The notes beneath the pieces are model-generated. The model was not told the DNA's origin. It worked only from the letters and a program-made list of their open reading frames with translations, and searched no databases. Positions 2,986 through 56,485 of a stretch of 64,000 nucleotides of DNA are shown piece after piece (the stretch's first letter is position 1; each line of letters opens with the position of its first letter). The stretch lies in the NCBI GenBank assembly GCA_949358305.1, contig OX442314.1:9362001-9426000 (forward strand). The letters run 5' to 3'. The DNA comes from Strigamia acuminata (taxonomy: Eukaryota). The position numbers were made by a program, and so were the translations under genes.

Positions 2986-3867
2986 GTTTAGTTTTCATTG
3001 TAATTGTTTGGTTTACACTATTTTTGTCTAGTTTTCATTCAGATTTTGTTGTTTTTGTACTGTTTTGATTGTATTTCTTAAGCTTTTATTTAGATTTAGT
3101 TGTTTTTGTTATCTCACAGCTTTCATATTTTCTGTTAGTTTTATACTTTTTTCTTCACTGTTTTTATTTAATAAATTATGCAAATAATTTACTATAAACT
3201 CCACAAAACCAAACAAAAAAAAACAAAACAATTGCCTTCCAAACTATTCCCTCTCCCCAACCAACAACAAATTAATTCTCCTCACACATTTTCTCACCCA
3301 TACAACTCAAACAAACACAAAAACAACTTGTTTTATTACATTTATTCTATGTTAACCCCAATACTTGATCTTCATTTCTGATTTAATGTAATAATTTCAC
3401 TTTTATAGCTTGTTTTCTACTTCACAGCACCACACTCCCAACCCTAATCTTGTATTTCTCCCTCATGTGTATTCATCTGTTCATCATCTTTCTTCTTTCA
3501 ATTTTTTTTCATTATCCTTTTTGCTTGTTGCATCAAGCAATAAAAAGAACAACTTGTGGCATTTCATTGCAACAAACCTCTGACCTTTCACCAACTTTTT
3601 CCATACAAATACAAATAGGTCAAAGATCACTCTAAGAGGAACTTTGATTTGTGTGTGTGTGGATGATGCTTTATACTAATTGTCTCCCATCCACTGAACC
3701 AACTCATATTTCTCTCCTTTAATTTTTATTCCAAACAGGTTGTGAAAGTCAAAACCCAATATCATTAGTAATATCAAATACAAAATTACCCAATAATTTT
3801 TAATTGTCTATTATATTATCTTTAATTTCAGTTTAATTTAATCTAGTTTGATTTTTCAGGTGTGAAA

Positions 3868-3971
3868 ATGAAGTGGATATCTCTTAGTGTCATCTCGGCT
3901 TTGATTTCCACCTGCATGTCAGGACACATGGCAAACCAATTCGTTCGGAAGACTGACAGACCTGAGATAGA
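3868..3971 (+). CDS. Secreted knottin/ICK peptide precursor, coding exon 1 (signal peptide + short propeptide)
   Basis: Acceptor TTTTTCAG ends at 3859 and ATG is at 3868. Encodes MKWISLSVISALISTCMSGHMANQFVRKTDRPEI with a hydrophobic signal-like N-terminus. Phase-2 donor GA|GTATGC at 3971/3972. Confidence 0.75.
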
Positions 3972-4159
3972 GTATGCTAACTAGTACACTTAATGGTTTT
4001 ATTTAATGTAATCGTCTCAAGTTTACCAGAAAACTAACGTCATGTAAACGCACTCGGTTAACCGGATAAATAAAATCCAAATTTTCACTTATTTGGAAAA
4101 CTGTTACCATGTAAACGTAGTATATTGTACATCCTGATTAATTCTAATTTTTTGTCCAC

Positions 4160-4326
4160 CACCCTCGTTATAACGAATTCCAAAAAACCCGAGAAATCGA
4201 CCCGTTATAACAAAACTTCGTTATATCAATTTTTTTTAATATGATGTTCTACAGCCAACCAACCAACCAAGCCATTTCTAACTATTGGTTAAATCAAGCA
4301 GTTCGTTATAACGAGGTTCGACTGCA
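4160..4326. mobile_element. Degenerate Tc1/mariner(pogo)-type MITE in the knottin intron
   Basis: CCCTCGTTATAACG at the left end and CGTTATAACGAGGTTCGACTG at the right end; same TIR family as 19365-19771. Confidence 0.6.
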
Positions 4327-4352
4327 TTAAACAAAAAAAATAATTATTTCAG

Positions 4353-4512
4353 AGGATGTCTTCCACAAATAAGTTTGTGCACCGTCGGCGCACAACCAGA
4401 ATGCTGTCAACTCTACACTTGCACCCACACATTATTCAACGAAGATACGCGCTGCATGCTCAAATTGGACAAAGAGGGCGAGCCGATTGATTGGACGGAA
4501 AAAGTCGGCTAA
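4353..4512 (+). CDS. Secreted knottin/ICK peptide precursor, coding exon 2 (mature cystine-knot domain)
   Basis: Acceptor TATTTCAG ends at 4352 and is phase-compatible with exon 1. Encodes (E)GCLPQISLCTVGAQPECCQLYTCTHTLFNEDTRCMLKLDKEGEPIDWTEKVG*, with C-X6-C-X7-CC-X4-C-X10-C spacing. AATAAA near 4592. Confidence 0.8.
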
Positions 4513-5149
4513 ACTTCCACGAGAAAAAAAAAATATCAAAAAATAATTTGTAACCCTTTTTAAATTACACCACTTATAAACCTAAATAGAAAATAAAATA
4601 AAAAAAACCAAGCATGAAGCAATGAATGTCTTTTGGGGTATTTGCACATCAACTGCAGGGTCCATCTGGACTCGGGACCTTGGCTGATTGCCAAGTAAGT
4701 GGAGGAGCCCTCGTTTAGGTGCCCGGGCAGCAGGTACACACCCCTTCTCACCCCTACTTTGCTCAAAGACCTCGTACTCGTGGCAAATTGCCAAAGAAAC
4801 CATTTTTTTCTTCTTTTTCAATTCGGCCATTGACACATGAGAGATGGCACAAAGAGATTAATTTTTTAAAAAAATTAGGTTTTATTATAATTTTTTTTTT
4901 TTTACTATTATGTTGTTAAATAGAAGGGGGTAGAAGAATCAAGGGGTGGATGGAATTAGAAAGCGAGGTCTGACTGTTTTCTTATCTACTCATCCGACTC
5001 CGTCTCCTTTTCTTGCGTTATGAGCGACCCCTGGTGGCAGGAAAATCTCCGCCAGCTGTTGGATGACCTCAGGAGTTGAGTGACAAGCTGGTCGACATCA
5101 GTGGTAATATGTAGCCAGGGTATTTACTGTTCTTTGGGGTCTCAAAGTG

Positions 5150-7369: not shown

Positions 7370-7745
7370 TCGCCATAATGAGGTTTACAAGCAACAAAAA
7401 GCTAAAAAGATAAAACCATTTCAACAATTAAACTTGAATTTCGTTATAATGAGGTTCCAAGCAATAAACAAGCCAAAAATAAAACTATTTCAACAATCAA
7501 ACTTTTTATTTCGTTATAATGAGGTTCGAATCAATAAACAAGCCAAAAATAAAACTATTTCAACAATTAAACTTTTTATTTCGTTGTAATGAGGTTTGAA
7601 TCAATAAACAAGCCAAAAATAAAACTATTTCAACAATTAAACTTGAATTTCGTTATAACGAGGTTCCAAGCAAGAAACAAGCCAAAAATAAAATTATTTC
7701 AACAATAAACGATTAAATTTAAACTTTGCTATAATGAGGGTTTCC
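7370..7745. repeat. ~70-bp tandem repeat containing a MITE-TIR motif
   Basis: TTCGTTATAATGAGGTT...AAGCCAAAAATAAAACTATTTCAACAAT repeated about 5 times. Confidence 0.8.
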
Positions 7746-10700: not shown

Positions 10701-11789
10701 CAAGCGAAAATGTGAGATTACCCCACCCCTTTAAATCCTCGTCTTGTATCGGTTTCTCAATAGTGTCCATCCATTTTGACGTAATTTTTTTACATTTTAT
10801 TAAGGAATGACCAATTTAGTGACGACAGATGTCAGTTGCAGATGATGCCCTAATTGGGAGCTTCGTTTTCCAAATGATTATAACATGAGTTGCAGAAAGA
10901 GGACGCAGCTTGTTATCAAAACGCTCTTGAGAACATGACCTAGCACTACAAATGTAATTAATTGCTCTACATAATGAGAGAGAGAGAAAGTACGGAATTG
11001 TCACCCGTTTGATCCCCCACTTTGAGGTAAAATGAATTAAAACGCGAGTCAATTTGAAGCCTGTGCAGTCATCAATCTTGTCTGGTCGTGGCAGTTTGAT
11101 AAAGAAAATCCCTCCATCTCCCCCACCCCACCCCATAAAAAATGGTGTAAATTTCAACCACTACTGACAATTTATCATGGAACCCCCAAATGACCACAAT
11201 TTTAAAAATTTTATATTTAAAAAAAAGAAATTATTTAATTAAAATTAAAACCTCGTTACAATCCAAACTCCGTTATAACGAATTACTAAAAGTAGAAACA
11301 AAAGTCGTTGTAACGAGGTTTTTGCTGTTTTACTTTTATTAACTCGTGGGACTTGAAATGTTCAACCCTAGCAATTGCAAGGGGCCTCCCTGGGATTGGT
11401 GTACAATAGGCCCTCGTTATAACGAAGCTCACTATACACTGATTCACTGCACAACTGTACTTGTAACCAGATATTGTTACAATTATTATGATGGAAAAGC
11501 TTGCTGTAACCAGTATTGGGCGAGATCTCAAGTCATGCAAGAAGTACTGTCAAAACCCGGAACAGGTGTTGTACCAGCAATGCAAGACCCAGTACTTTGA
11601 AAAAAAAGTACAGTATACTGTATACAGGTACAGCAATAGTACTGAGAAAAATCACAACAATATCATGTACTTACAGTGTTCTTAGCATTGATTGTAGTCA
11701 ATTACGATTTAGCGTATAAAAGAAGCAGCCATTGAGCCAGTGGCCAAATGCCAAACACTGGCTGTAAACCACACTGTAACGACACTATA

Positions 11790-12200
11790 AAACTTTGTTT
11801 TACGCTGTAAAACCTCGTTATAATGCTGTAAAACCTCGTTATAACGCTGTAAAACCTTATTATAACGCTGTAAAACATTATTATAACACTATAAAACATC
11901 GTTATAATGCTGGTAAAACCTTGTTATAACGCTGTAAAACTTGCTATAACGCTGTAAAACCTCGTTATAACGCTGTAAAACCTCGTTATAACGCTGTAAA
12001 ACCTCGTTATAACGCTGTAAAACCTCGTTATAACGCTGTAAAACCTTATTATAACACTAAAACCGTATTATAATGCTGCAAAACCTCGTTTCAACACTAC
12101 GAAACCTCATTATAACACTGTAAAACTGCGTTATAATGCTGCAAAACCTCGTTGTAATGCTGCAAAACTTTGCTACAATGCTGTAAAACCTCGCTATTAA
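11790..12200. repeat. 21-bp minisatellite GCTGTAAAACCTCGTTATAAC
   Basis: Direct tandem copies; the unit contains the MITE TIR core CCTCGTTATAAC. Confidence 0.9.
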
Positions 12201-13214
12201 CAAAATTTTAACTGAACTTTTACACACTCGCTTCGCGCTGTGTTTTTGGAACAAAGTAATAACACCAATCAGGGTCGACTACAACTGCAAAATTTCGTTG
12301 TATCGAAATTAGACCATCCTGTATAACAAACCCAAAAAAATTAATTCAATACTTTACACCTTAACATAAAATCACATTGTGCATCAAATCAATTTTTTAC
12401 CAACCCTCGCTATAACGAAATGTGCTGAGGGAGTGTCATGTTTATTTATGTCGATTGTGCGTTTTAACTGATAAGAAAAGTGATAATTGAGTGCATGTTG
12501 TACGCGTGTATGGATATTATTCATCTGGTTTTGATGTCGAATTTAGTGGCATCCTGTGAGCGCGTTCCGCCTGGGTGGCCATGCGATCACTGATTACCGT
12601 GTTCAGCTGCGTCCTGTTCACTCATACAAGTGGAAAATACTCCCTCGTGCTCAGTGTCCTGTCTATCCACTGGATTGGCGGGAATTTGATCGAGGAAAAA
12701 CGAGGGGTGATCGAGGTAGAGAAAGACAAGAGAAGAGAGTGGGGGGATCACTACTATTGTGTGTCATGTGGGGGGTCCTCTTTTATCCTACTCTTTAAAT
12801 CATTGATGCAAAAAAAATTGTTTATTACCGTAATATCAATAAATAAAAAATGACGCTATTATTATTATTAGGAAAACAAAGTATGACAACATAAATGATT
12901 TTTTTAAGTCTCCATCTGTAGCTGATGGAGGGCGTTTACTGGTCAATTTTAGTTTTGGTTAATTGTCGCTGTGATGATAATTTGGGATGATTTATGGGGG
13001 TATAAAAGCAAAGTTTTGAAGATTTTGTAACAAAATTCAGCAAAATTTTACGTTTTTTAAGAATAAATTATTTTTTGTGTTGTTTTTAAAGTAATTTGTA
13101 CACATTCTAAGCAATTTTCAGCAAATTTTTGTGTATTTCAGCAAATTTCAGCGATTATTGCATTTTTTTTGCAATTTTGTTCTTTTTGCACATGGTTAGC
13201 AATTTCCGTTAGCT

Positions 13215-13500: not shown

Positions 13501-14481
13501 AATTTTGCACATTTTAGTCAATTTTCCACATTTTCAGCAAATCTCAGCCATTTTTTTACACATTACAGCAAATTTCACAAAATACACCACACATTTACCA
13601 ACTTTCAACTCCACAAAAATCAACTCTGCAAGTCAAACTTTTAAAACAGAGAAAACATAAAAATTAAAAACTTGCTGCTGGCAATCTGAAACCTTTCACA
13701 TATAAACCTTAACCACAAAAATAAAAAAAAACCAAAAAAAAAAACCACGATTTCCTCCCGTTCATTTTCCATTCCAATCCATCTGTTACCACCTCAAGAC
13801 ATCCACAAAATGTCACAAAATCCACATCCATTTAAATACTTTTATTTCCAAAATACCCCCACCAACCCCACCACCATTTTATTCAAATACCAAACACATG
13901 TAAACGCCTAAACCTATTTGCTTTTACAGCAAACATCTGTTTGTTTTTGCCCTACTGCTGCCAGCAATACCCCAACATCAAAAACATAAAAAAAACAACA
14001 AAAAATCCCAACAATTTTTTAATCCCAAAAAAAAAAAAAAAAAAAAATCGACATTTATTTAAGATTTATCTAAGATTTATTTAAGATTTATTTAGCCGGT
14101 ATTAGCATCTAATTTCCTTGTTGGCAACTTGGCATTAGACGAGTGCAGCGCAGTGAAGCGCATTCCCAGGCGGTGCTTTTTGTGTTGTCTCAATCTCGCC
14201 CTCTCGTCGATAATTTACTGCTGTTGCTATTAAAATTTTATGGCAAATTCCTTTATTTATTCTCTCAGATGCAAATGCACGAGGGATTCAACTCAACTCG
14301 TCCCACATTAACAACTGATACTTTCTTTTTTCGTCTCCCACTCTCGCCCATTTCTCAAACTGCGTCTCTTTGCCCAAATAAATCAATTGCAGACCCAGGA
14401 GTGCATTAAGCTAAGAGACACAGACATGCGCACAACAAATTACAACCAACTCATTTGTGCGCATTCCTTTTTCAACAACAA

Positions 14482-14665
14482 TGCTGTGTTCGGACTTCAC
14501 TGCATGTTTTGTGTAGTGACGTTATCTTTGCCTCAGGCGCTGTACCCCCAGCGCCACCTTGTAGCTTGACCCCGAATAAAGCACTTGTTAGTTCTTAGCC
14601 TAATATGACTGACCTTTCATTTCAACCATCCTCAACATAATTTGTTATTAGTAAGATATATACTA
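14482..14665 (+). repeat. 5' LTR (TG...TA)
   Basis: Direct repeat of 19021-19204. Contains AATAAA and a GGCGCTG...CAGCGCC stem. Confidence 0.95.
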
Positions 14666-14667
14666 AA

Positions 14668-14677
14668 TGGCGACGAG
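14668..14677 (+). promoter_or_regulatory. Primer-binding site, probably tRNA-Ser(GCU)
   Basis: TGGCGACGAG lies 2 nt after the 5' LTR and is complementary to the ...CTCGTCGCCA 3' end of eukaryotic tRNA-Ser(GCU) (tRNA sequence recalled, not searched). Confidence 0.75.
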
Positions 14678-14861
14678 ATAAGGATCCGAAATCCACGTGC
14701 AACTAATGAATCCAGTAGCGACGCAAGTTTTTTTCGTGTTTTTCGAACTTTTGAGCGCTTTTTCGGCCCGTTGCTGACCACGCCGTCCCGACGTTAGGCC
14801 TACGTTCCATTGTCACGTTTTCCTCGCGTTTTCGTACTCAACGCCGACTTTTGCCATCAAA

Positions 14862-17800
14862 ATGTCAGCTCTAAAAGGGACACCGCGGGAATACGATCCA
14901 ACAGAGGATTGGGGCCTGTATTGCAAGCGAATGACGAGCATTTTCGCTTGTAACAAAATCGTCGATGACCAGGAGAAGGTCCACACGCTGCTGTCGTACG
15001 TCGGCATGCCGACGTTTAAGCAGCTGGACACGCTCGCGGCGCCGAAGGAAGCTGCCGACTTGAAGTACGCGGACCTTGTGGCCTTGATGCAGAAAAATGC
15101 ACGCGCGAAGCCGCTCGTGCTGGGAGAAATTCGCCGTTTTCACCGCCGTGATCGATTGCCGAATGAAACCGTGCTGGAGTATTCTCTCGCTCTTCAGGAC
15201 CTGGCCCAAAACTGTGAGTTCGCCGACAAAACTAACGAATTAAGAAATCGCTTTCTTTGTGGCCTCCAGAATGAGCAAGTGCAACAGGCGCTCACGTTAA
15301 AAAAAGATTTGACGTTCGACGACGCGGTCGAGTTCGCTGCCGCTGCTGAAGTGTCGCAAAAGGAATTTTCGACAATCGCGACGCAGAATGCATCGGCGCT
15401 GCCGGTGCACAAACTCCACTACGACTCCAAACCACGTCACGATGCGTCAAGGGGTAGAAAACGCTCCTCGAGGGGCACTACCTCGTTTCAACCAGGCCGC
15501 CAACCATCCAACTCGAAAGGAAATGTGTCGGCGTGTTCTGCTTGCGGCAGTAAGTCGCACACGCGTGAAGCGTGCCGTTTTCGCGATGCCACGTGCCACG
15601 GATGCGGAAAAACTGGCCACATCAAACCAGTTTGCCGGTCGGTCTTGAAGTCACCAGCTCCAGTCCATGCAGTCGAGATGCCACAACAGCTCACGTACTA
15701 CGCTGTCGAGCCGGATTTGACGACGACCGTCAACGCGATTGGCATTAAAGCCACACAACCAATTATTTTGGCCATTAAAATTGCTAATGTCAATCTCCTA
15801 ATGGAAATGGACACGGGAGCAGGCGCTACATTTATAAATCTCGAAACTTACACTAAATATTTTTCAAATTTTCCATTGCAGCCCCTTCCGATCCAGATGA
15901 ATACGTATGGCGGCACAACACTCCGAATGGAAGGGGTTTGCGAAGTTCCGGTTCGTCATCGTGATCGCGATTTTCGTTTGCCGTTGTGCGTGGCGACTCA
16001 CGGCCCCGTCCCACTTCTTGGCCGCGACTGGCTCGAAGCATTTGGTTTGCTGTCGAAAACTGGCGACCTGGTGGGCGCAGAAGTATTTTCGTTGTCCACA
16101 TCGACGCCAACGCCCGAGAAGCTCGATACACCGTCGTCCAACAGATTGGACGAGATTTTGGAACGTCATGCCAACGTTTTTCGCGATGAAATCGGATGCT
16201 ACAACGTGCACAAGGTCCACATCGATATCGATCCGGCCGTGCAACCGATATTTTTGAAGAATTACCCAGTTCCACTCGCGATGAAGCCACGACTGGAGGA
16301 AGAGCTGCGCAGACTGCAGGATTTAGGTATCATAACTCCTGTCGCTTCTTCTAAATGGGCGACACCTATTATGCATGTCCTTAAATCAGATGGCACGTTA
16401 AAGATAGCGGGATGCTATAATAGAACCATAAATAAGGCGGTTCTCCCCAACTCTTACCCTTTACCTCTGTTTGAAGACGTTGCAGCGAAGTTGTCGGGCG
16501 GTGAGACGTATTCTACTCTAGATATGAATCACGCCTACAACCAGCTGGAGTTGGATGCAGAGAGTAAATTGGTGTGCACAATTAATACCCACTTGGGTCT
16601 CTTCACAGTAAATAGACTTTTTTACGGGATATCCAGCGCGCCGGCAATCTTCCAACGCGAGATGGACAAATTAACAGCCAAAGTCGAGAGTACGCAGCCG
16701 TTCATTGATGATTCGGCCGTGACCGGTGCAACAAACGCAACGCACTTATGCAACCTGGATCAATTATTGGGTGCATTTGACAAAGCCAATTTAACATTAA
16801 ATAGAAAAAAGTGCAAGTTTTTGCGTGCTTGTGTGCAGTTTTTGGGGCTGAACATTTCCAAGCTAGGAATCACGCCAGTGGACTCAAAATTGGCTCCACT
16901 ACGCAACGCCATGCAGCCAACCGACGTTTTATCGCTCAAATCGTTCCTGGGGCTCATAAACTATTATGGCAAATTTATTAATAATTTATCCACTTTATTA
17001 GAGCCGCTTTACCGCCTCACGCGCGACGATACGCCGTGGACATGGGGACAGGAACAACACAAGGCCTGGACGAAGGTCAAGGCTGCAGTAACTGTCGATT
17101 CAGCGCTGGCACACTACGACGCGAAGAAGCAACTTTATCTGACCGTTGATGCCTCGCCGGTCGGTGTGGGCGCCTTTATTTCCCACGTAGAAAATGGAAT
17201 CCATCGTCCAATTGCCTTTGCGAGTTCCCTCTTGTCCAGCGCGCAGAAAAATTATGCGCAAATCGACCGTGAAGGTCTTGCGATCGTTTATGGCGTTCGC
17301 CGCTTCCATCACCACCTGTTTGGGAGAAAATTCATTTTACGAACTGACCACAAACCGCTGGTGGCCATTTTCGGAGAGAAGAAAGGATGCAATCAAATTG
17401 TCGCCGCTCGCCTGCACCGGTGGGCAATTTTCCTGAGTGCCTACGATTATGCTATCGAGCATGTGCCTGCGGTCGACAACCAAATTGCAGATGGATTGTC
17501 TCGCAATCCTCAACCTGTTGTCGACGGTCGAGAAGACCTCGACATGCACGTTAACGAAATATTTTCCGTTTCTCTTTCGCAGTTTCCAGTATCGCAAGCA
17601 GCCTTGCGTGCAGCATACGACGCAGACGCCCAATTGCAAGCAGTTCTGCAGTGCATCCGAGACGAATGGAAATCAAAGACACCTGACTTAATAAATTTTT
17701 ATAAGCACAGGTCCGCCTTTTCCACACATGGACCATTCTTGTTCCTGTCGGAGCGTTTGGTCGTGCCAGAGCAGCTTCGCCGTGCAGTCCTGACGGAGTT

Positions 17801-18920
17801 GCATGCAGGACATTTCGGAATCGTTCGCACCAAGTCGCTCGCTCGCTCAACAGTTTGGTGGCCGTCAATCGACCGTGACATCGAGTCGATGGTGCGTTCG
17901 TGCGACGTGTGCCAGCGCGCACTCCCGGATCCGCCAAAGACGTCCGACCTGCGTTGGCCCATTCCCGACGAAATTTGGGGGCGAATCCACCTCGATTTCG
18001 CCGGCCCCTTCCATGGCAAAATGTTCCTGCTGGCTGTGGATGCGCGCACCAAGTGGTGCGAAGTTCGTATGATGACCGCCACTACCTCGAAAGCAACAAT
18101 TGCGGTTTTAAAATGTTGGTTTAAACGTCACGGCTTGCCGATCCACGTTCATTCCGACAATGGGCCGCAATTCACTTCAGCGGAATTTGTTGACTTCCTG
18201 TCACGGAACGGCATCCGACAAACTCGTTCACCGCCTTTCCACCCAGCTACCAACGGAGCAGTGGAAGGCTTCGTGAAGACTTTTAAAAATCAAGTCGGAA
18301 AATTTCTAAATTTGAATTTGAGCATTTCAGAAGCCGTTGACCAATTTTTAATTGCCTATCGCTCGACGCCGCACGTTTCTACACGGACTACGCCGTCCGA
18401 GGCATTTCTACAACGAACTGTTCGAACTAGATTACATTTGTTGAACCCCCGCTTAATGCCGGAGCCAACAACTGTGGAAACGCGCCGTTCCTTCGAGCCT
18501 GGGGAATTGGTGTTCGCGCGCGACTATTTGCACGCCGCGAGATGGGTTCCTGGGATAATATCGCAGAAGACATCGTCCACCACGTACGATGTGGCCGTCG
18601 GAAATGCCATAATTTGGAACCGACATGCGGACCAGCTCCGAAAACGCCAGACTTCGCACGCTCAAATTCCGGAGGGGGGAGGGAATCGCGGACATTTTCC
18701 TTTGATAAGTGACGACTCAAACCTCGGTAATACACCCTCAGTTGTACAACCGCAAGTCCTAGTTGCTCCTCCCAATTCACCCAACCTCCTAAACGTTCGT
18801 GATGCTTCTCCAGCTCCTACACCTCCTCCTGTTCCCGTCAATACTCCTGTTGTGCCGTACCGCCATCCCCAGCGTATTCGCAACCCGACACAATTTTACG
18901 GATATAATAACAGTGATTAA
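14862..18920 (+). CDS. Gag-Pol polyprotein, 1352 aa (2 CCHC zinc knuckles, protease, RT, RNase H, integrase)
   Basis: Knuckles CSACGSKSHTREAC and CHGCGKTGHIKPVC; protease MDTGA; RT LD...AY, FYGISSAPAIFQ and FIDD; RNase H VDAS and TDHKPL; integrase H-x3-H...CDVC, LDFAG, SDNG and NGAVE. The PR-RT-RH-IN order indicates Gypsy. Confidence 0.97.
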   Translation: MSALKGTPREYDPTEDWGLYCKRMTSIFACNKIVDDQEKVHTLLSYVGMPTFKQLDTLAAPKEAADLKYADLVALMQKNARAKPLVLGEIRRFHRRDRLPNETVLEYSLALQDLAQNCEFADKTNELRNRFLCGLQNEQVQQALTLKKDLTFDDAVEFAAAAEVSQKEFSTIATQNASALPVHKLHYDSKPRHDASRGRKRSSRGTTSFQPGRQPSNSKGNVSACSACGSKSHTREACRFRDATCHGCGKTGHIKPVCRSVLKSPAPVHAVEMPQQLTYYAVEPDLTTTVNAIGIKATQPIILAIKIANVNLLMEMDTGAGATFINLETYTKYFSNFPLQPLPIQMNTYGGTTLRMEGVCEVPVRHRDRDFRLPLCVATHGPVPLLGRDWLEAFGLLSKTGDLVGAEVFSLSTSTPTPEKLDTPSSNRLDEILERHANVFRDEIGCYNVHKVHIDIDPAVQPIFLKNYPVPLAMKPRLEEELRRLQDLGIITPVASSKWATPIMHVLKSDGTLKIAGCYNRTINKAVLPNSYPLPLFEDVAAKLSGGETYSTLDMNHAYNQLELDAESKLVCTINTHLGLFTVNRLFYGISSAPAIFQREMDKLTAKVESTQPFIDDSAVTGATNATHLCNLDQLLGAFDKANLTLNRKKCKFLRACVQFLGLNISKLGITPVDSKLAPLRNAMQPTDVLSLKSFLGLINYYGKFINNLSTLLEPLYRLTRDDTPWTWGQEQHKAWTKVKAAVTVDSALAHYDAKKQLYLTVDASPVGVGAFISHVENGIHRPIAFASSLLSSAQKNYAQIDREGLAIVYGVRRFHHHLFGRKFILRTDHKPLVAIFGEKKGCNQIVAARLHRWAIFLSAYDYAIEHVPAVDNQIADGLSRNPQPVVDGREDLDMHVNEIFSVSLSQFPVSQAALRAAYDADAQLQAVLQCIRDEWKSKTPDLINFYKHRSAFSTHGPFLFLSERLVVPEQLRRAVLTELHAGHFGIVRTKSLARSTVWWPSIDRDIESMVRSCDVCQRALPDPPKTSDLRWPIPDEIWGRIHLDFAGPFHGKMFLLAVDARTKWCEVRMMTATTSKATIAVLKCWFKRHGLPIHVHSDNGPQFTSAEFVDFLSRNGIRQTRSPPFHPATNGAVEGFVKTFKNQVGKFLNLNLSISEAVDQFLIAYRSTPHVSTRTTPSEAFLQRTVRTRLHLLNPRLMPEPTTVETRRSFEPGELVFARDYLHAARWVPGIISQKTSSTTYDVAVGNAIIWNRHADQLRKRQTSHAQIPEGGGNRGHFPLISDDSNLGNTPSVVQPQVLVAPPNSPNLLNVRDASPAPTPPPVPVNTPVVPYRHPQRIRNPTQFYGYNNSD

Positions 18921-19020
18921 GTGTATTTGTTTTTATTAATCGAATTGGTACATTGTCTATCGTGAATGAATTCTATTATTGTATTTGTGATTTGATTAAT
19001 GTGCCATTAATGGGGAATGA

Positions 19021-19204
19021 TGCTGTGTTCGGACTTCACTGCATGTTTTGTGTAGTGACGTTATCTTTGCCTCAGGCGCTGTACCCCCAGCGCCACCTTG
19101 TAGCTTGACCCCGAATAAAGCACTTGTTAGTTCTTAGCCTAATATGACTGACCTTTCATTTCAACCATCCTCAACATAATTTGTTATTAGTAAGATATAT
19201 ACTA
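19021..19204 (+). repeat. 3' LTR
   Basis: Copy of 14482-14665, preceded by the purine-rich AATGGGGAATGA (PPT-like). Confidence 0.95.
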
Positions 19205-19364
19205 AACAAAACATTTTTTCTCTCTCTCTCTCTCTCTCACAAACTCGCAAAAATATTTCGTAATTGGTGGTCGTGAATCATTCTGCCGTCAGATGGCAGC
19301 TTCCACTCGCGCCAAATATCCGGTTCCATCTCGATGCATGAGATATGGAAGGGGGTGCAAGATA

Positions 19365-19771
19365 CTGTCGAACCTCGTTATAACGTAGTAATCCCCGGGT
19401 TCCTTACAATTCGTTATAACGAGGTTCGACTGAATTTATCATCGCGATATAACGAATTGTCGTTATAACGAAGAAATTTTACGAGTTCCTTACGATTCGT
19501 TATAACGAGGTTCGACTGTACCTACGTTTCGGGATATAACAAATTTTCGTTATAACGAAAAAATTAACCCCGGGTATCTTCAGATTCGTTATAACGAGGT
19601 TCGACTGTACCTATGCATCGGGATATAACGAATTTTCGTTATAACGAAAAAATTTCTCAGGTTTCTTGCGATTCGTTATAACGAGGTTCGACTGTACCTG
19701 TGTAACAAATTTTCGTTATAATGAAGAAATTTCCTCATGTTCTTGCGATTCGTTATAATGAGGTTCGACTG
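19365..19771. mobile_element. Tc1/mariner(pogo/Tigger)-type MITE with five tandem right ends
   Basis: Left end TA|CTGTCGAACCTCGTTATAACG. CGTTATAA(C/T)GAGGTTCGACTG ends at 19432, 19518, 19607, 19694 and 19771, the last four followed by TA. Confidence 0.8.
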
Positions 19772-20289
19772 TACCTATGGAGTTTGATTCTCCCCCTTTT
19801 CTTTTCCGGTATGTTTCGTGTGTTGTTGTATAATCGTCTCGCGAAAGCCGATCCTATGCAAATTGCCGGTCCCGGGAGACGAATCCCAATCACATCTTTC
19901 AATTGGATTTGGGCTGAGCGAGTTTCAATTTTATTCCCACACAACATGTTTTTTTTTTTTAAAGAAAAAAAACGTAATGCATCGAGTTCGTTATAGGGAA
20001 TGTTGGTTTTAAATTGGGTTGTTTTGTTTTGTATTTTTATTTTTTTTTGTCATTTTATGTGAAATCATTTTTGCAGATAAATGTTTTTGATGAGTGATTT
20101 GATTGGTAATTTTTATACAATTACCAGTACAGTATTACTATTAGGAAACACGGATTTTGATTGTGATTGATGATTCAAATTTGCAATTGTTTGGGTAAAT
20201 TTCAAATGATTGTAGTGATTTTGTGCACATTTTGGTTGAATTTCTCATGAACTTAATGATTTTGTGTCAAAATTTGGTTGAAATCCGAA

Positions 20290-20750
20290 CACATTTCACA
20301 AATTTCTTCAATTTTCGAACAATTTTCACAATTTTCTTCAATTTTCGAACAAATTTCACAAATTTCTTTAATTTTCGAACAAATTTAACAAATTTCTTCA
20401 ATTTTCGAACAAATTTAACAAATTTCACACATTTCAAACAATTTTCACAATTTTCACAAATTTTACAAATTTCAAACAAATTTCACAAATTTCAAACAAT
20501 TTTCACAAATTTCACAAATTTTACAAATTTCAAACAAATTTCACAAATTTCAAACAAATTTCTTCAATTTTCGAACAAATTTCAAACAAATTTCTTCAAT
20601 TTTCGAACAAATTTCAAACAAATTTCTTCAATTTTCGAACAAATTTCAAACAAATTTCTTCAATTTTCGAACAAATTTCAAACAAATTTCAAACAAATTT
20701 CAAACAAATTTCAAACAAATTTCAAACAAATTTCAAACAATTTTTCACAA
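20290..20750. repeat. AAATTTCAAAC / AAATTTCTTCAATTTTCGAAC minisatellite
   Basis: Tandem 11- and 21-bp units. Confidence 0.85.
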
Positions 20751-21880
20751 CTTTCCCCAACTTTTGACTAAAATCCAATCCAATTCCACTATACCATCTC
20801 AAACATTTGTTTCACACTCCAAACAGAATTCCTAATTTTCATCAACATACATCCTTTCTTCCACATTCACAATTCCCCCCCACCCCGCCCCCCCCCCCAA
20901 AAAAAAACATCTTCACCAACAACCATCCTTACCAAACATCCAATAAACCTCTCCACCAAAAAACCTTCCCCAACCCAAAAAAACCCCCAACCGCTCCATT
21001 TTTTAATTCCATTCCAACCCCTCAAAAAACTCATGTTTATCAACTCAATTTAAATATTTGCCCAACCGTCCTTACACCGAGGTCGCATTTAAAAATCACC
21101 CCGACTCCCAAACCCTAAAAAAGTGTGAGTGACAGAAGCTGATCTGGCAACAATCTCCTTTTTTTTCCCCGCGAGGGGGCGTGCGCTTCTTAATGGATGC
21201 GGTCTGGTCGCATGGACGCGAAGCTTTTTCACCATTTTAATCACGAGCCCCCAGAATGCCACGTGCTCAACCCCCTCCCCACCCCCACCCTTCCCGTTCC
21301 CATCACTCGAACTGCCCCCCCCCGCCCCCCCATCCCTACTCATCACCCCCCCTGTGGGTTTATCGAGGATTGCTGGCGTGTTAGCCGAATTGAGGGTCAG
21401 GGGTGAGAATAAGAAAAGACTGGGGGGGCAGGGGGGGGCAATGAAGAGGGGGATGAGATGTCCAAAGGGAATTTGGACTCGCATGTAGATGAGTTTGTGT
21501 GGGGGACTACGCCCTTCAAAAGTGAGCTGGGATTGCGTGACGTGTGGAATTCATAACTAGACTGGTAGTGGACAGTGGACACTAATTTTTCCAAGTGGTG
21601 GATCCGATGGATTTCAATTTGGCAAAGAGGTTGGGGAATTCCGAGAGTAAATCCCATCAAAATGGAATTGTGAAGGTGTAAAGTTGGTCGGTGGGTTAAG
21701 GGACTAGCGAAGGTCGTTTCGCACACCCCGTGATGACCGAAGAGGTTAAGTTTTTTTTTTTTTTTTTTTTTTTTTGAGGGGTGTGGGGGTGTGGATTGGT
21801 TGTTTGGGGCCGTTGGTGTAGTTTATTGTTGTGTAAAGTATTTTTTTTTATTGAAATGCACTTAGGAAACGTCAATTGAA

Positions 21881-23582: not shown

Positions 23583-23984
23583 TTAATTAATTTCCTTCTT
23601 TTCATCATCAAATTCAATCTCTTTGCTTTTTTCGGCAACCAGAGCGCCTTGATACCTGGCCACGGCTTTGTTGCCTTCGCAAACGGCGTGTCGGGCCAAT
23701 TCCGGGGGAAGCATTAATCGAACGACGGTCTGGACTTCCCGACTGGTAATAGTGCCGCGCTTGTTTATTTGCGCCACACGAGCAGCTTCGTCCGCGATCC
23801 TTTCGAATAAATCGATGACCATACTATTCATAATGTTCATCGCCTTGTTGGTAAGACAAGAACCGGGATGAACGTCCTTCAACACCTTATTAATGTAGCT
23901 CATGTAATTTTCCTTCCTGCGCCGGCTTCGTCGCTTCTTATCGCCGCTCATGTTCAACACGGATCGCTTGGTCGCTGGAGCCAT
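23583..23984 (-). CDS. H2B: Divergent histone H2B variant, 133 aa, intronless
   Basis: Histone-fold motifs [39 protein letters not shown] and [31 protein letters not shown], plus an extra C-terminal tail. Confidence 0.93.
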
Positions 23985-24033
23985 GATCTAATGTCCGTTA
24001 GTTTCGAATGTGCTTGAAGTTACTTCCAGCGAG

Positions 24034-39500: not shown

Positions 39501-39787
39501 TTCTCTCATTCCTTTTATTTTGGGTGTTGGTCACTGGGCGGCATCTCTCATCAGTGGCCTCTTCATTGCACCCTTTTGTGTCGGAAGTTGTCGCTCGTAA
39601 AACGCGCCCATCCTCACGGCTTCACTACGCATGCGCAACGACTGTTTGTCTAAGTCGCCATCATTCATCATTTAATCGTCTTGGGAAAAATCCTCAAAAA
39701 AATGCAACAAATCAAAACTTCCAAAAAAATTCGTTATAACGAGGTTTTCAAATAATATTATTCTTTTAAGATAGTCAAACCCCATTG

Positions 39788-40432
39788 CAGTCAAACCTCG
39801 TTATAACAAACCGCGATATAACGAATTTTTGTCATAACAAACCGCGATATAACGAATTTTTGTCATAACAAACCGCGATATAACGAATTTTCGTTATAAC
39901 ATACCACGATATAACAAATTTTCGTTTTTACAAACCGCAATAAAACAAATTTTCGTTATAACATACCACAATATAACAAATTTTCGTTTTTACAAACCGC
40001 AATAAAACAAATTTTCGTTATAACAAACCACGATATAACAAATTTTCGTTATCACAAATGCAATATAATGAATTTTCGTCATAACAAACCACAATATAAC
40101 GAATTTTCGTTATAACAAACCGCAATATAACGAATTTTCGTTATAACAAACCGCGATATAACGAATTTTCGTTATAACAAACGTAATATAAAGAATTTTC
40201 CTCATAACAAACCACGATATAACGAATTTTCGTTATAACAAACCACGATATAACAAATTTTCGTTTTCACAAACACAATATAATGAATTTTCGTCATAAC
40301 AAACCACAATATAACGAATTTTCGTTATAACAAACCGCGATACAACAACTTTTCGTTTTTACAAATCCTAAAAAATGACTTGGTTGGTTGGTTTTTGCCA
40401 TTTTCGGTCACTTCGTTATAACGGGGTTGGAC
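39788..40432. mobile_element. pogo/Tigger-type MITE expanded by an internal ~32-bp satellite
   Basis: Left end CAGTCAAACCTCGTTATAAC, tandem ATAACAAACCGCGATATAACGAATTTTCGTT units, degenerate right end CGTTATAACGGGGTTGGAC. Confidence 0.7.
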
Positions 40433-47714: not shown

Positions 47715-48172
47715 TACAACAATCATTTTCTACAACAGTCATTTCTGCAACAGTTATTTCTGCAACAGTTATTTCTACAACAGTTATTTCTACAACAGTT
47801 ATTTCTACAACAGTTATTTCTACAACAGTCATTTCTACAACAGTCATTTCTAGAACAGTCATTTCTAGAACAATCATTTCTACAACAGTCATTTCTAGAA
47901 CAGTCATTTCTACAACAGTCATTTCTACATCAATCATTTCTACAACAATTATTTCTAAAACAACCATTTCTACAACAATCATTTCTTCAACAATAAATTA
48001 TCCACCAATCATTTCTACAACAAAAAATTGGCCAACAATCATTTCTACAACAAAAAATTGGCTAACAATCATTTCTACAACAAACAATTGGCCAACAATC
48101 ATTTCCACAACAAAAAATTGGCCAACAATCATTCCTACAACAAAAAATTGGCCAACAATCATCTCTACAACA
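47715..48172. repeat. 15-bp then 30-bp minisatellite (ACAACAGTCATTTCT)
   Basis: Tandem copies; explains the spurious 'VVEMT' ORFs. Confidence 0.9.
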
Positions 48173-49227
48173 TTCATTAATGCATCTGCTGACCTGTCTA
48201 TCAACTTAAAATTCCAATCTTTGCATCAACTTCCTTCTCTTTTATCCAAAACAAAAAAAGCCGAATAAGAAAAGCGAAATACCACGAGCAAATACAAATA
48301 GCAGATTGAATTGAATGCACCAAAAGACATAAAAGAAATTCCTGCAAAGATTTGCAATTCAAACCATCTCTTTTTCCCACTGCGAATGTCATCGAGGATT
48401 AACCCTTTGATTATTCACATTCATCGTCAAGAAATACAAGGATGAGAAGGTCAACCATTGGCAAAACCCGAGGAACGTTTTGATGGAGTTACACGTGGGT
48501 GGGCACTTTTATCCAGCACCCCCCTTTCAAAGACTGCTCGCCTTCGCGGACCGAGCGCGCCACTTCATTATAACGAGGTGGCGCGTTAAGAAGCCTCGTA
48601 AAAACGCGCGTTTCACATTAGCACCCCCTTGCCTTTTATGCACGGACAACTGGGCAAACTAATTTCACTGCACGGTCACCAGAGGGCGCTCCAGGTGATG
48701 GACGTGACGGACCCGTTGCACAAAGAGAACAAAACGCGTCTCTAAAGGGTCCTTTTGTCACACTTTTCGAATGCCACTGGGTCCACGTACCGGGACAGGG
48801 TTTTAATGTCAATCACTTTATACAATTCTTCGACACAATATTCTTTTGTGTGCCTAAGAAATGAGTTTACTAACAAACAGTTAAATATTTGCTTATTCCT
48901 TGCCGATATACTTGTATTTCATTTGCTTTTTCAACAGAAATTTCTTGTTTTCCAATTTTACATTTTATTTGCAAATCGACCGAATGTTTGTTTATGGTTT
49001 TATAAACATTTTTGTTCAATTTGTGTTGAATATCATTTAATTAGTTATATTTATATTGTATTTATGTTGTATTTATGTTGTATTTATGTTATGTTTATGT
49101 TGTATTTATTTAGTATTTATGTAGTATTTATATTGTATTTATGTTGTATTTATGTTCAATTTGTGTAGTATTTATATTATATTCATAAGTTAGTGCATTT
49201 GTTATTTGTAGGATTTTAAAATGCCTA

Positions 49228-52844: not shown

Positions 52845-53257
52845 AAACCTCGTTATAACAAAGTCGGGCCGCCGCATAAGGATCTTTGGCGGAATCTTTA
52901 GCGAATTATGAATTATGAATAGTTATGATGTCGCATATAACGAATTATCGATATAACGAATTATCGGTATAACGAATTTTCGATATAACGAATTATCGAT
53001 ATAACGAATTATCGATATAACGAATTATCGATATAACGAATTATCGATATAACAAATTATCGATATAACAAATTATCGATATAACAAATTATCGATATAA
53101 CGAATTATTGATATAACGAATTATCGATATAACGAATTATCAATATAACGAATTTTAAAAAATGATTTTTTTTAGATAATTCGTTTTAACGAACTCTCGT
53201 TATAACCAATCGATTTTTCCGGTCCCTTGCGATTCGTTATAAAGAGTCTCGACTGTA
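52845..53257. mobile_element. pogo/Tigger-type MITE with a 16-bp GATATAACGAATTATC satellite
   Basis: Left AAACCTCGTTATAAC, satellite at about 52935-53150, right end GATTCGTTATAAAGAGTCTCGACTGTA. Confidence 0.65.
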
Positions 53258-54047: not shown

Positions 54048-54975
54048 GGAGAAAATCTCGACGGATCTCTGAAAAAGCTCGTCGGATCTCGAAAAAATTT
54101 CGTTAAATCATGAAGATATCTCGTCCGATTTTTAGAGAAATTCTCGTGGGACCTCTGAGACAGACTCGTTTGATTTGGGAAAAAACCTCGTCTGATCTCG
54201 GAGAAAATCACGTCAGATCCCGGAAAAAATCTCGTCAGATGCTGGAGAAAATCTCGTCAGATATCTGAGAAAATCTCGTCAGATATCGGAGAAAATCTCG
54301 TCAAATATTGGAGAATATCTCGTCAGATCTCGGAAGAAAATCTCGTCAAATCTCAGGGAAAATCTCGTCAGATCTCGGAGAAAATCTTGTCAGATCTCAG
54401 AAAAAATCTCGTCTGATCTCAAAGAAAATCTCGTCAGATCTCGATTAAAATCTCACAGAATCTCGGGAAAAAATCTCATCAGTACTAGAAAACCTTACAC
54501 GATCTCGTCACATCTCAGAGAAAATCTCGTCAGATCTCAGAGAAAATCTCGTCAGATCTCAGAGAAAATCTCGTCAGATCTCAAAGAAAATCTCGTCAGA
54601 TCTCAGAGAAAATTTCGTCAGATCTCACAGAAAATCTCGTCAGATCTCACAGAAAATCTCGTCAGATCTCGGAAAAAATCTCGTCAGATATCGGAGAAAA
54701 TCTTGTCAGATCTCTGAGAAAATCTCGTCAGACATCGGAGAAAATCTCGTCAGACATCGGAGAAAATCTCGTCAGACATCGGAGAAAATCTCGTCAAATA
54801 TCGGGGAATATCTCGTCAGATCTCGGAGAAAATCTCGTCAGATCTCAAAGAAAATCTCGTCAGATCTCAGAGAAAATCTAACAGAATCTCGGAAAAAAAA
54901 TCTCATCAGTACTAGAAAACCTTACACGATCTCGTCACATCTCAGAGAAAATCTCGTCCAATCTCAGCGAAAGTC
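54048..54975. repeat. 22-bp minisatellite AGAAAATCTCGTCAGATCTC(A/G)G with a higher-order duplication
   Basis: Tandem copies; the block ending AGTACTAGAAAACCTTACACGATCTCG occurs at about 54481 and 54908. Confidence 0.9.
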
Positions 54976-56485
54976 TCACCAATCTCAAAACACTATCAAA
55001 ACACTAAAATCCCCTCCCAAAAATACAAAATCTACCTGAATCCCCCCAAAAATTCCCAACAAACCTCGCAAAACCTCGTCCCCAAAAAACCCCGCCACAA
55101 AACTCCGCACAAACTTCCAACAGCCAAAACTTGATCAAAACAAATCACCCCCAACAAATCTCCCTCGCACGTGATCCACCCAACCAATCATTTATCCTCC
55201 CACTTAAACCCAAATTAAACAAAAACTCAATTCAATTAATTCCCCAACATTTCAACCTCTATCTCTCCCACCCAAACAAATCCCGCACCAAACGCCCCCC
55301 CTACCGACTAATCCCCGCACAAAACCCCCATTTTTTCCTCCCCAAATTTACATAATTTATCACCCAACTCAAAGTGATAAAACCGAAAACAATCAATCAA
55401 ATCAAACCGTCTTCGCTTCTCATCTTTAATTGCGACCGGCCCCGAATGATTAATTTATAGATCCCTTCCTAAACCGAAACCGAAAAACCGTCAACAAACA
55501 AAACAATTTTTTCTCCGCTCGTTAAAACGAAGTCTCGTTACAAAGTTATTCAGTGATTGATAATTGCACGTGTGGCCGAAATCAATTAGTCGCTGCTAAA
55601 ATGGCCGCCCGCCTGCCTGGCGTGCGCCCGCCTCGCCTCAACATGTCAGACAGAAGTTTGAGGCGTAATGAGGCGATCTAAGTGAGTCGAGCATTTTGAG
55701 AAATGAGGACGGAGGACAAATGAGAAATGGGTGTTTTTGCTAATGGAAGATAGCGACGGACGTGGCTGCATGGCGGCTGCAAAATGTGAAATATCATTAA
55801 TTAAGGGGTCTGTATTTGCATATGGATGCGGAGTAATAAAAAAAAAAGTGGTGGAGGGGTATGGGGGGATTGTGGAGCCGTCATCGTCTCATTCTTGAGT
55901 GCATCTGCGTGGTGGAGGAATAATTAATTTTGTAAGGTTTTGGATTTTTTGGTTTTATGGGAGGTTGGGTGTGGGGATGTGTTTGAATAAATTTGGGTTT
56001 GTGGGGAATCGGTTGTTTGGGTTGGAAAATTTTTTTTGGTTGGGTTTTGTTGGATAGTTGTTTGGTTTTGTTTTTGAAGAAAAGTTTTTTTTGGTTAAAT
56101 TGTTGGAAAATTGTTTGTTTTTGGTTAAATTGTTAAAAAATTGTTTTTTTTTTCGGTTAAATTGTTGAAAAATTGTTTTTTTTTGGTTAAATTGTTGAAA
56201 AATTGTTTTTTTTTTTTTGTTAAATTATTGAAAAATTGTTGTTTTTTTGTTAAATTGTTGAAAAATTGTTTTTTTTTTTTAAAAGAAATTGTTTGCTAAC
56301 GTAGAAAAATTGCTTGTTTATATTGAAAACCAGGCCCACAAAAATCAAACTGGAAACCAGAGTGGTCAAAACCAAAGTAAAAAATAAAAAAATCAGAAAA
56401 ACTGTTAATACCTGAAAGAACACAAAGACAGAAAAGAAAGAAAAAAGTGAAGAATTATACAGTAGTGTAGTTGAAAAACACATAT

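Follow-up and report, generated by a model that had tools for sequence, protein, structure and literature searches.

In the 64-kb window analyzed here, i.e., the whole stretch of 64,000 nucleotides from position 9,362,001 to 9,426,000 of contig OX442314.1 (Strigamia acuminata), a two-exon gene for a small secreted knottin, a peptide of the inhibitor cystine knot (ICK) type, was probably identified. Judged from the nucleotide sequence, the probability that this is a real, unannotated gene with the 87-residue product modeled below is estimated at about 0.6. The open spliced frame, the canonical splice sites, the six-cysteine framework and the acidic tail ending in glycine are directly present in the sequence. 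Since knottins are widespread and nothing in the gene departs from the known kind, it is likely an ordinary member of this kind, and it is presented as a well-formed candidate and not as a discovery. A preliminary description of the locus had proposed an unannotated toxin-like, antimicrobial or signaling peptide. Of this proposal, the gene model and the ICK-type framework are retained, the antimicrobial role is regarded as the least likely of the three, and an unannotated secreted peptide of the knottin type is considered likely. Gene callers routinely overlook peptide genes that are small and split into several exons, and knottins are prized as stable scaffolds and as probes of ion channels.

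The candidate gene is located on the forward strand. Joining 3868-3971 to 4353-4512, as proposed in the preliminary description, was confirmed to yield an open frame of 264 nucleotides (104 + 160), corresponding to 88 codons and 87 amino acids, with no internal stop. The start codon at 3868 has the context GTGAAA ATG A with an adenine at position -3, and an in-frame stop lies ahead of it. Exon 1 ends at the donor GA/GTATGC, exon 2 begins behind the acceptor ATTATTTCAG/A (4343-4352, ending in TTTCAG) and is closed by a TAA stop codon at 4510-4512. The intron between them is of the GT-AG type and splits a glutamate codon (GA/A). The reading frame of the knot is open from 4312 only and lacks a start codon, and the frame of exon 1 is closed by a stop three codons beyond the donor. 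Therefore, the product exists only via splicing. The coordinates of all parts of the gene are compiled in Table 1.

The first exon encodes Met-Lys, a mostly hydrophobic stretch of 15 residues and a short pro-region containing Arg-Lys (...FVRKTDRPEI). The second exon encodes a Gly-Cys-Leu-Pro start, the framework C-X6-C-X7-CC-X4-C-X10-C, whose loop lengths are compatible with a knot, and a tail of 17 residues with five acidic and three basic residues, ending in Gly. The signal-like N-terminus, the RK pro-region, the cysteine spacing and the Gly-ending acidic tail were thus all found as described before, and the assignment of the six cysteines to an ICK-type framework holds. A seventh cysteine sits in the signal-like part. 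By rule of thumb, this part has several features of a signal peptide, namely Lys2, uncharged residues 3-17 with a Kyte-Doolittle mean of 1.78, and small residues at positions -3 and -1 of Ser18/Gly19.

Table 1. Parts of the candidate knottin gene and possible signals next to it (positions in the 64-kb window; UTR, untranslated region)
Feature	Position	Strand	Remarks
Possible 5'-UTR intron acceptor, TTTTTCAG	3852..3859	+	just ahead of the ATG; putative, read from the sequence alone
Exon 1	3868..3971	+	start codon, signal-like N-terminus, pro-region, first two bases of the split Glu codon
Phase-2 intron	3972..4352	+	381 nt, GTATGC...TTTCAG; ~4017-4345 is a high-copy repeat
Exon 2, last coding exon	4353..4512	+	third base of the split Glu codon, whole knot domain, tail, TAA
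Knot core, first to sixth cysteine	4357..4455	+	C-X6-C-X7-CC-X4-C-X10-C
AATAAA, possible polyadenylation signal	4592..4597	+	80 nt behind the stop; weak evidence

Support which does not rest on the cysteines comes from the base composition and the copy number of the exons. Both exons are GC islands, with a GC content of 0.45 for exon 1 and 0.48 for exon 2 as opposed to 0.32 in the intron, 0.28 upstream and 0.25 downstream of the gene. The GC content at third codon positions (GC3) of the coding sequence is 0.54. A value of 0.48 is reached by 3.6% of the 160-nucleotide windows in the first 12 kb and by 12% of those across the 64 kb outside of a long terminal repeat (LTR) element described below. 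Word depth was taken from two DNA contig runs of one study, with a base level of 76-79 in the first (X1) and 273-280 in the second (X2). Exon 1 shows single-copy depth in X1 and exon 2 in both X1 and X2, and therefore the frame is not repeat-borne. An origin from a repeat or a virus was rejected on the basis of this depth and of the lack of viral neighbors in the window.

The intron is of a different nature. In about 330 of its 381 bases (4017-4345) the word depth ranges from 900 to 105,000, which identifies a high-copy repeat with the palindromic motif TTCGTTATAACGA. Perfect inverted arms of 15 nucleotides are located at 4163-4177 and 4302-4316. The same dispersed and satellite repeat around TTCGTTATAACGA was also observed at 7440-7700, 19396-19776, 39786-40393, and 53079-53246, and its copy at 19.4-19.8 kb forms an array of units of roughly 88 bp.

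The probability of finding such an arrangement by chance was estimated separately for the framework and for the upstream exon. The framework class C-X6-C-X5-8-CC-X4-C-X4-13-C has one match in the six frames of the window apart from tandem-repeat artefacts, which is the candidate itself. When 64-kb sequences were simulated with a first-order Markov model, it appeared in one of 200 windows and in none of 1,500 windows, i.e., in one of 1,700, and a hand estimate from codon frequencies gave about 2e-4 per window. For the upstream exon, stretches of 1,370 nucleotides of real DNA from either strand of the window were searched for signal-like exons that begin with an ATG, span 18-60 codons, lead into a GTRNG donor of the required phase and contain a Lys or Arg close to the start as well as an uncharged hydrophobic 10-mer. 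A fitting exon was offered by 3.6% of 3,000 random segments, and by 8.6% of 1,000 segments when any phase was allowed. In the 1,370 nucleotides which actually precede the knot exon, exon 1 is the sole fitting model. The joint chance of about 6e-4 x 0.036 is near 2e-5 per window.

The comparison with known sequences and folds points to knottins, and a good part of its results at the same time weighs against the reading as a real knottin gene, as do the searches for relatives. The Pfam search anticipated in the preliminary description returned a single family, Toxin_7 (PF05980), with an E-value of 0.0021 and an alignment over profile positions 1-33 of 34. Its score of 18.7 bits is below the Pfam gathering cut-off of 27, and because of this the peptide is not filed as a member of Toxin_7. 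Among all sequences of the Protein Data Bank (PDB), the best match is the spider toxin agelenin (2e2s), with E-values of 0.068 (whole exon 2 peptide) and 0.03 (knot part only), neither of which is significant by itself. The alignment comprises 13 identities in 35 residues, seven of them in residues other than cysteine: Gly, Leu, and Pro of Gly-Cys-Leu-Pro, the Pro before the CC pair, one Leu, and both Asp and Arg in Asp-x-Arg-Cys. Next in the PDB comes alstotide S4, a plant knottin, at an E-value of 2. In the ESM Atlas, the nearest named clusters to the knot part are those of Toxin_12, Omega-toxin, diguetoxin and cyclotides. Their scores range from 0.76 to 0.87, and by the standard of the tool they are leads only.

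The structure prediction, which had also been suggested for this peptide, gave a better model for the knot part than for the whole exon 2 peptide. Without an alignment, AlphaFold2 gave a poor model for the 52-residue peptide of exon 2, with a mean predicted local distance difference test (pLDDT) score of 45.7. For the 37-residue knot part alone the mean pLDDT was 67.9, which corresponds to medium confidence, and the model contains a beta-hairpin (residues 21-26 and 31-36). VIA-align of the knot model against 48,161 representative solved chains returned 12 chains with a Z of at least 2, their values being only 2.0-3.0. These chains are Ms11a-2, Hc3a, SOTI-III, mu-agatoxin, murinotoxin-1, tachystatin B, CcoTx-II, delta-atracotoxin, SGTX-Sf1a, Magi4, gurmarin, and S67, each of them a small disulfide-rich toxin or inhibitor. 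Most of these 12 we take to be knottins, which only the title of the tachystatin B entry says by itself. With Foldseek, five of seven rows obtained for the knot model are spider toxins, with TM-scores of 0.41-0.52 and E-values above 3, and no row had an E-value of 0.001 or lower. By these sequence and fold comparisons the peptide appears compatible with an ICK fold, of which they are no independent proof.

All of these tests point to knottin or ICK peptides and to nothing else, and each of the resemblances is weak. The likeness seen with Pfam, PDB, the ESM Atlas and AlphaFold is largely driven by the cysteine spacing and is not independent of the observation from which it started. The word-indexed search of 5.8 billion proteins, restricted to candidates of 28-91 residues, found no relative of the peptide, and no genuine match emerged when viral, metagenome and prokaryote contigs were scanned with back-translated sequence. 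Two 16-residue matches in viral loci (L001 and L002) were discarded, as they are out-of-frame chance matches containing stops. Within the 64 kb, no paralogue and no other convincing cysteine-rich peptide gene was found, and the candidate is single, whereas ICK genes of the toxin type usually occur in families. Finally, the hydrophobic core of the signal-like part is broken by Ser and Thr.

A chance arrangement would consist of an accidental six-cysteine frame in AT-rich non-coding DNA, lying behind an accidental frame of Met and hydrophobic residues with usable GT and AG sites. This is regarded as unlikely given the joint chance calculated above, which is small but not negligible across the approximately 250,000 windows that were scanned, so that a few false finds have to be allowed for and rare coincidences are to be expected somewhere. 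An accident would also have to account for the position of both exons in GC islands with a GC3 of 0.54, for an intron whose phase and position fit the arachnid ICK gene plan, for the seven non-cysteine identities with agelenin, and for a fold search which yielded small disulfide-rich toxins and inhibitors only. It would, on the other hand, be in keeping with a gene-poor, repeat-rich window, with a family likeness that is sub-threshold and cysteine-driven throughout, and with the 3.6-8.6% of random segments that provide a fitting upstream exon. The AATAAA behind the gene is weak evidence, as this hexamer is common and occurs within the next 150 nucleotides at 21% of random positions.

Another explanation accepts the knot exon as real and assigns it to a different or dead gene, where it is spliced to more distant upstream exons or has remained as a silent relic with a repeat-filled intron. 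The fraction of the intron that is high-copy repeat (about 330 of 381 bases) agrees with a relic, but the frame is intact, with neither a stop nor a frameshift, and repeats in introns are normal for working ICK genes, as described in two studies (PMC13172734, PMC3694633). Further upstream exons are hinted at by the possible acceptor just ahead of the ATG and by the arachnid ICK genes, which have three exons and not two. However, exactly one fitting exon lies within the 1,370 nucleotides upstream of the knot exon, and it provides a start codon together with a signal-like sequence. A different or dead gene is taken to be quite unlikely, and the two-exon knottin gene remains the preferred reading.

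The plan of this two-exon knottin gene resembles that of arachnid ICK genes. According to one report, all 42 funnel-web spider ICK genes are divided into exons for signal, pro-region and mature toxin, with a phase-1 intron followed by a phase-2 intron and the mature toxin in the last exon (PMC13172734). The scorpion lambda-KTx/calcine genes carry a phase-2 intron directly ahead of the exon with the mature knot, and in one orthologue this intron contains a mobile element of 314 bp (PMC3694633). The candidate likewise has a phase-2 intron just ahead of a single terminal knot exon, which in its case also includes the tail, repeat or mobile DNA in this intron, and a precursor with a signal-like part, a pro-region, and a knot in this order. 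In contrast to the three exons of the arachnid genes with their phase-1 intron between signal and propeptide, its signal-like part and pro-region are encoded by one exon (3868-3971). Furthermore, its intron splits the codon of the Glu that precedes the Gly and not that of the Gly, and an Arg directly before the knot, as a cleavage site for the propeptide, is missing.

With agelenin and Toxin_7, the candidate has in common the Gly-Cys-Leu-Pro start, the spacing C-X6-C-X7-CC-X4-C, the Pro before CC and the terminal Asp-x-Arg-Cys. The C-terminus of agelenin is an amide, according to a paper title in the reference list of PMC10674772, and the terminal Gly of the candidate could give rise to an amide in the same way. 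Unlike agelenin, the candidate has a last loop of 10 residues instead of 9, an acidic tail of 17 residues, and is anionic overall. Its host does not look like a spider either: the contig totals of 155-554 million letters per run would suggest a fairly small genome, below the more than one billion bases of spider genomes, and both this size and the undepleted CpG reported below would suit many insects and other small invertebrates better.

ICK-like peptides have also been described outside of arachnids. Naickin and amickin of Nasonia and the honey bee are tachystatin-type ICK peptides encoded outside venom, with an extended, Pro-rich and basic C-terminus and a conserved phase-0 intron before the second cysteine (PMC2853521). 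The candidate shares the C-terminal extension behind the knot, and tachystatin B is among its fold matches (Z 2.2). Its intron lies in phase 2 before the first cysteine, with none inside the knot, and its tail is acidic, so that it does not fit this type. The cys-motif proteins known from polydnaviruses and from teratocytes (VHv1.1, TSP14, and Cp-TSP13) are secreted and have six conserved cysteines forming a knot, and their genes, which lie in wasp genomes, contain introns (PMC5012692). The candidate is similar in its predicted secretion, its six cysteines and its intron-bearing gene, but Cp-TSP13 has 129 amino acids and three introns, and nothing in the 64 kb marks a proviral segment. An agelenin-like ICK peptide outside of arachnids is U-nemertotoxin-3 of Lineus ribbon worms. 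It carries the Pfam domain Toxin_35 and not Toxin_7 (PMC10674772).

Regarding the maturation of the product, the precursor would enter the endoplasmic reticulum and the secretory pathway by means of its signal-like N-terminus, which would be cut near Ser18/Gly19 with the loss of the seventh cysteine. The pro-region may be trimmed after Arg27-Lys28, three disulfides (C1-C4, C2-C5, and C3-C6) would lock a core of 35 residues, and the C-terminus may become amidated through conversion of the final Gly. All predicted mature forms are anionic, with isoelectric points (pI) of 4.4-4.95, about 4.5 for the peptide, and charges of -4 to -7. Because of this charge, an antimicrobial role, one of the three functions suggested in the preliminary description, is the least likely of them, and action as a cationic, membrane-active antimicrobial was rejected. 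Since the mature peptide is predicted to be anionic, tight binding to a target would be likelier than an attack on membranes. Like other ICK peptides, it may bind to an extracellular protein, e.g., an ion channel or a receptor. This working mechanism is the default for the fold and is adopted by analogy and with low confidence; only a minor share of the belief in the gene, less than a third, rests on that mode.

A more specific reading would take the gene as a single-copy, anionic, long-tailed knottin of the agelenin/Toxin_7 type with the arachnid phase-2 intron, in a small unmethylated genome of an invertebrate other than a spider. In that case, the peptide would represent a non-venom, endogenous relative of the scaffold that was recruited for the ICK toxins of spiders and scorpions. 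This is very unlikely on the present evidence, and if it were true, the gene would offer a handle on the ancestral signaling function of the ICK toxin scaffold. Provided that the gene is expressed, the ICK peptides known from invertebrates would gain an unusual member that is anionic and long-tailed, and the intron position of the gene would serve as a data point for the age of the gene plan seen in arachnid ICK toxins.

An island with 60% GC extends over 4650-4800, immediately behind the candidate gene. Word depth is raised at 4581-4627 and 4769-4900 and at base level over the island itself. For the frames over this island (4582-4857 and 4563-4817 on the reverse and 4688-4837 on the forward strand), no Pfam match was obtained.

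The window as a whole is eukaryotic and AT-rich and contains, besides a histone gene, an intact Ty3/gypsy element. This element is a young, apparently intact LTR retrotransposon at 14481-19206, whose direct repeats of 187 nucleotides (14481-14667 and 19020-19206) are 100% identical. Its gag-pol frame on the forward strand (14778-18920) is open over 1,380 codons and contains protease, reverse transcriptase, RNase H and integrase domains. The nearest database relatives of its Pol protein are metazoan K02A2.6-like elements with only 35-45% identity.

Short-period tandem arrays were found at 11754-12220, 20501-20801, 47726-48205, and 54196-55036, with periods of 21 and 11/32 nucleotides among others. 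Some of them translate into false frames of cysteine-rich or repeat proteins, and some give spurious weak Pfam matches, e.g., to DUF5834. The cysteine-rich frames at 47.7-48.2 kb were rejected as peptide genes, as they are tandem repeats. Neither a tRNA, nor an Rfam family, nor a telomere-type repeat was detected in the 64 kb.

The histone gene is located at 23586-23987 on the reverse strand and encodes a divergent H2B-like protein with an acidic C-terminal extension. Because its identity to the listed H2Bs is only 49-67%, it appears to be a lineage-specific variant of H2B rather than a canonical copy. Across the whole window, CpG shows no depletion (observed/expected 1.09) and TpA does (0.60), a pattern which suggests a host whose germline DNA is little methylated.

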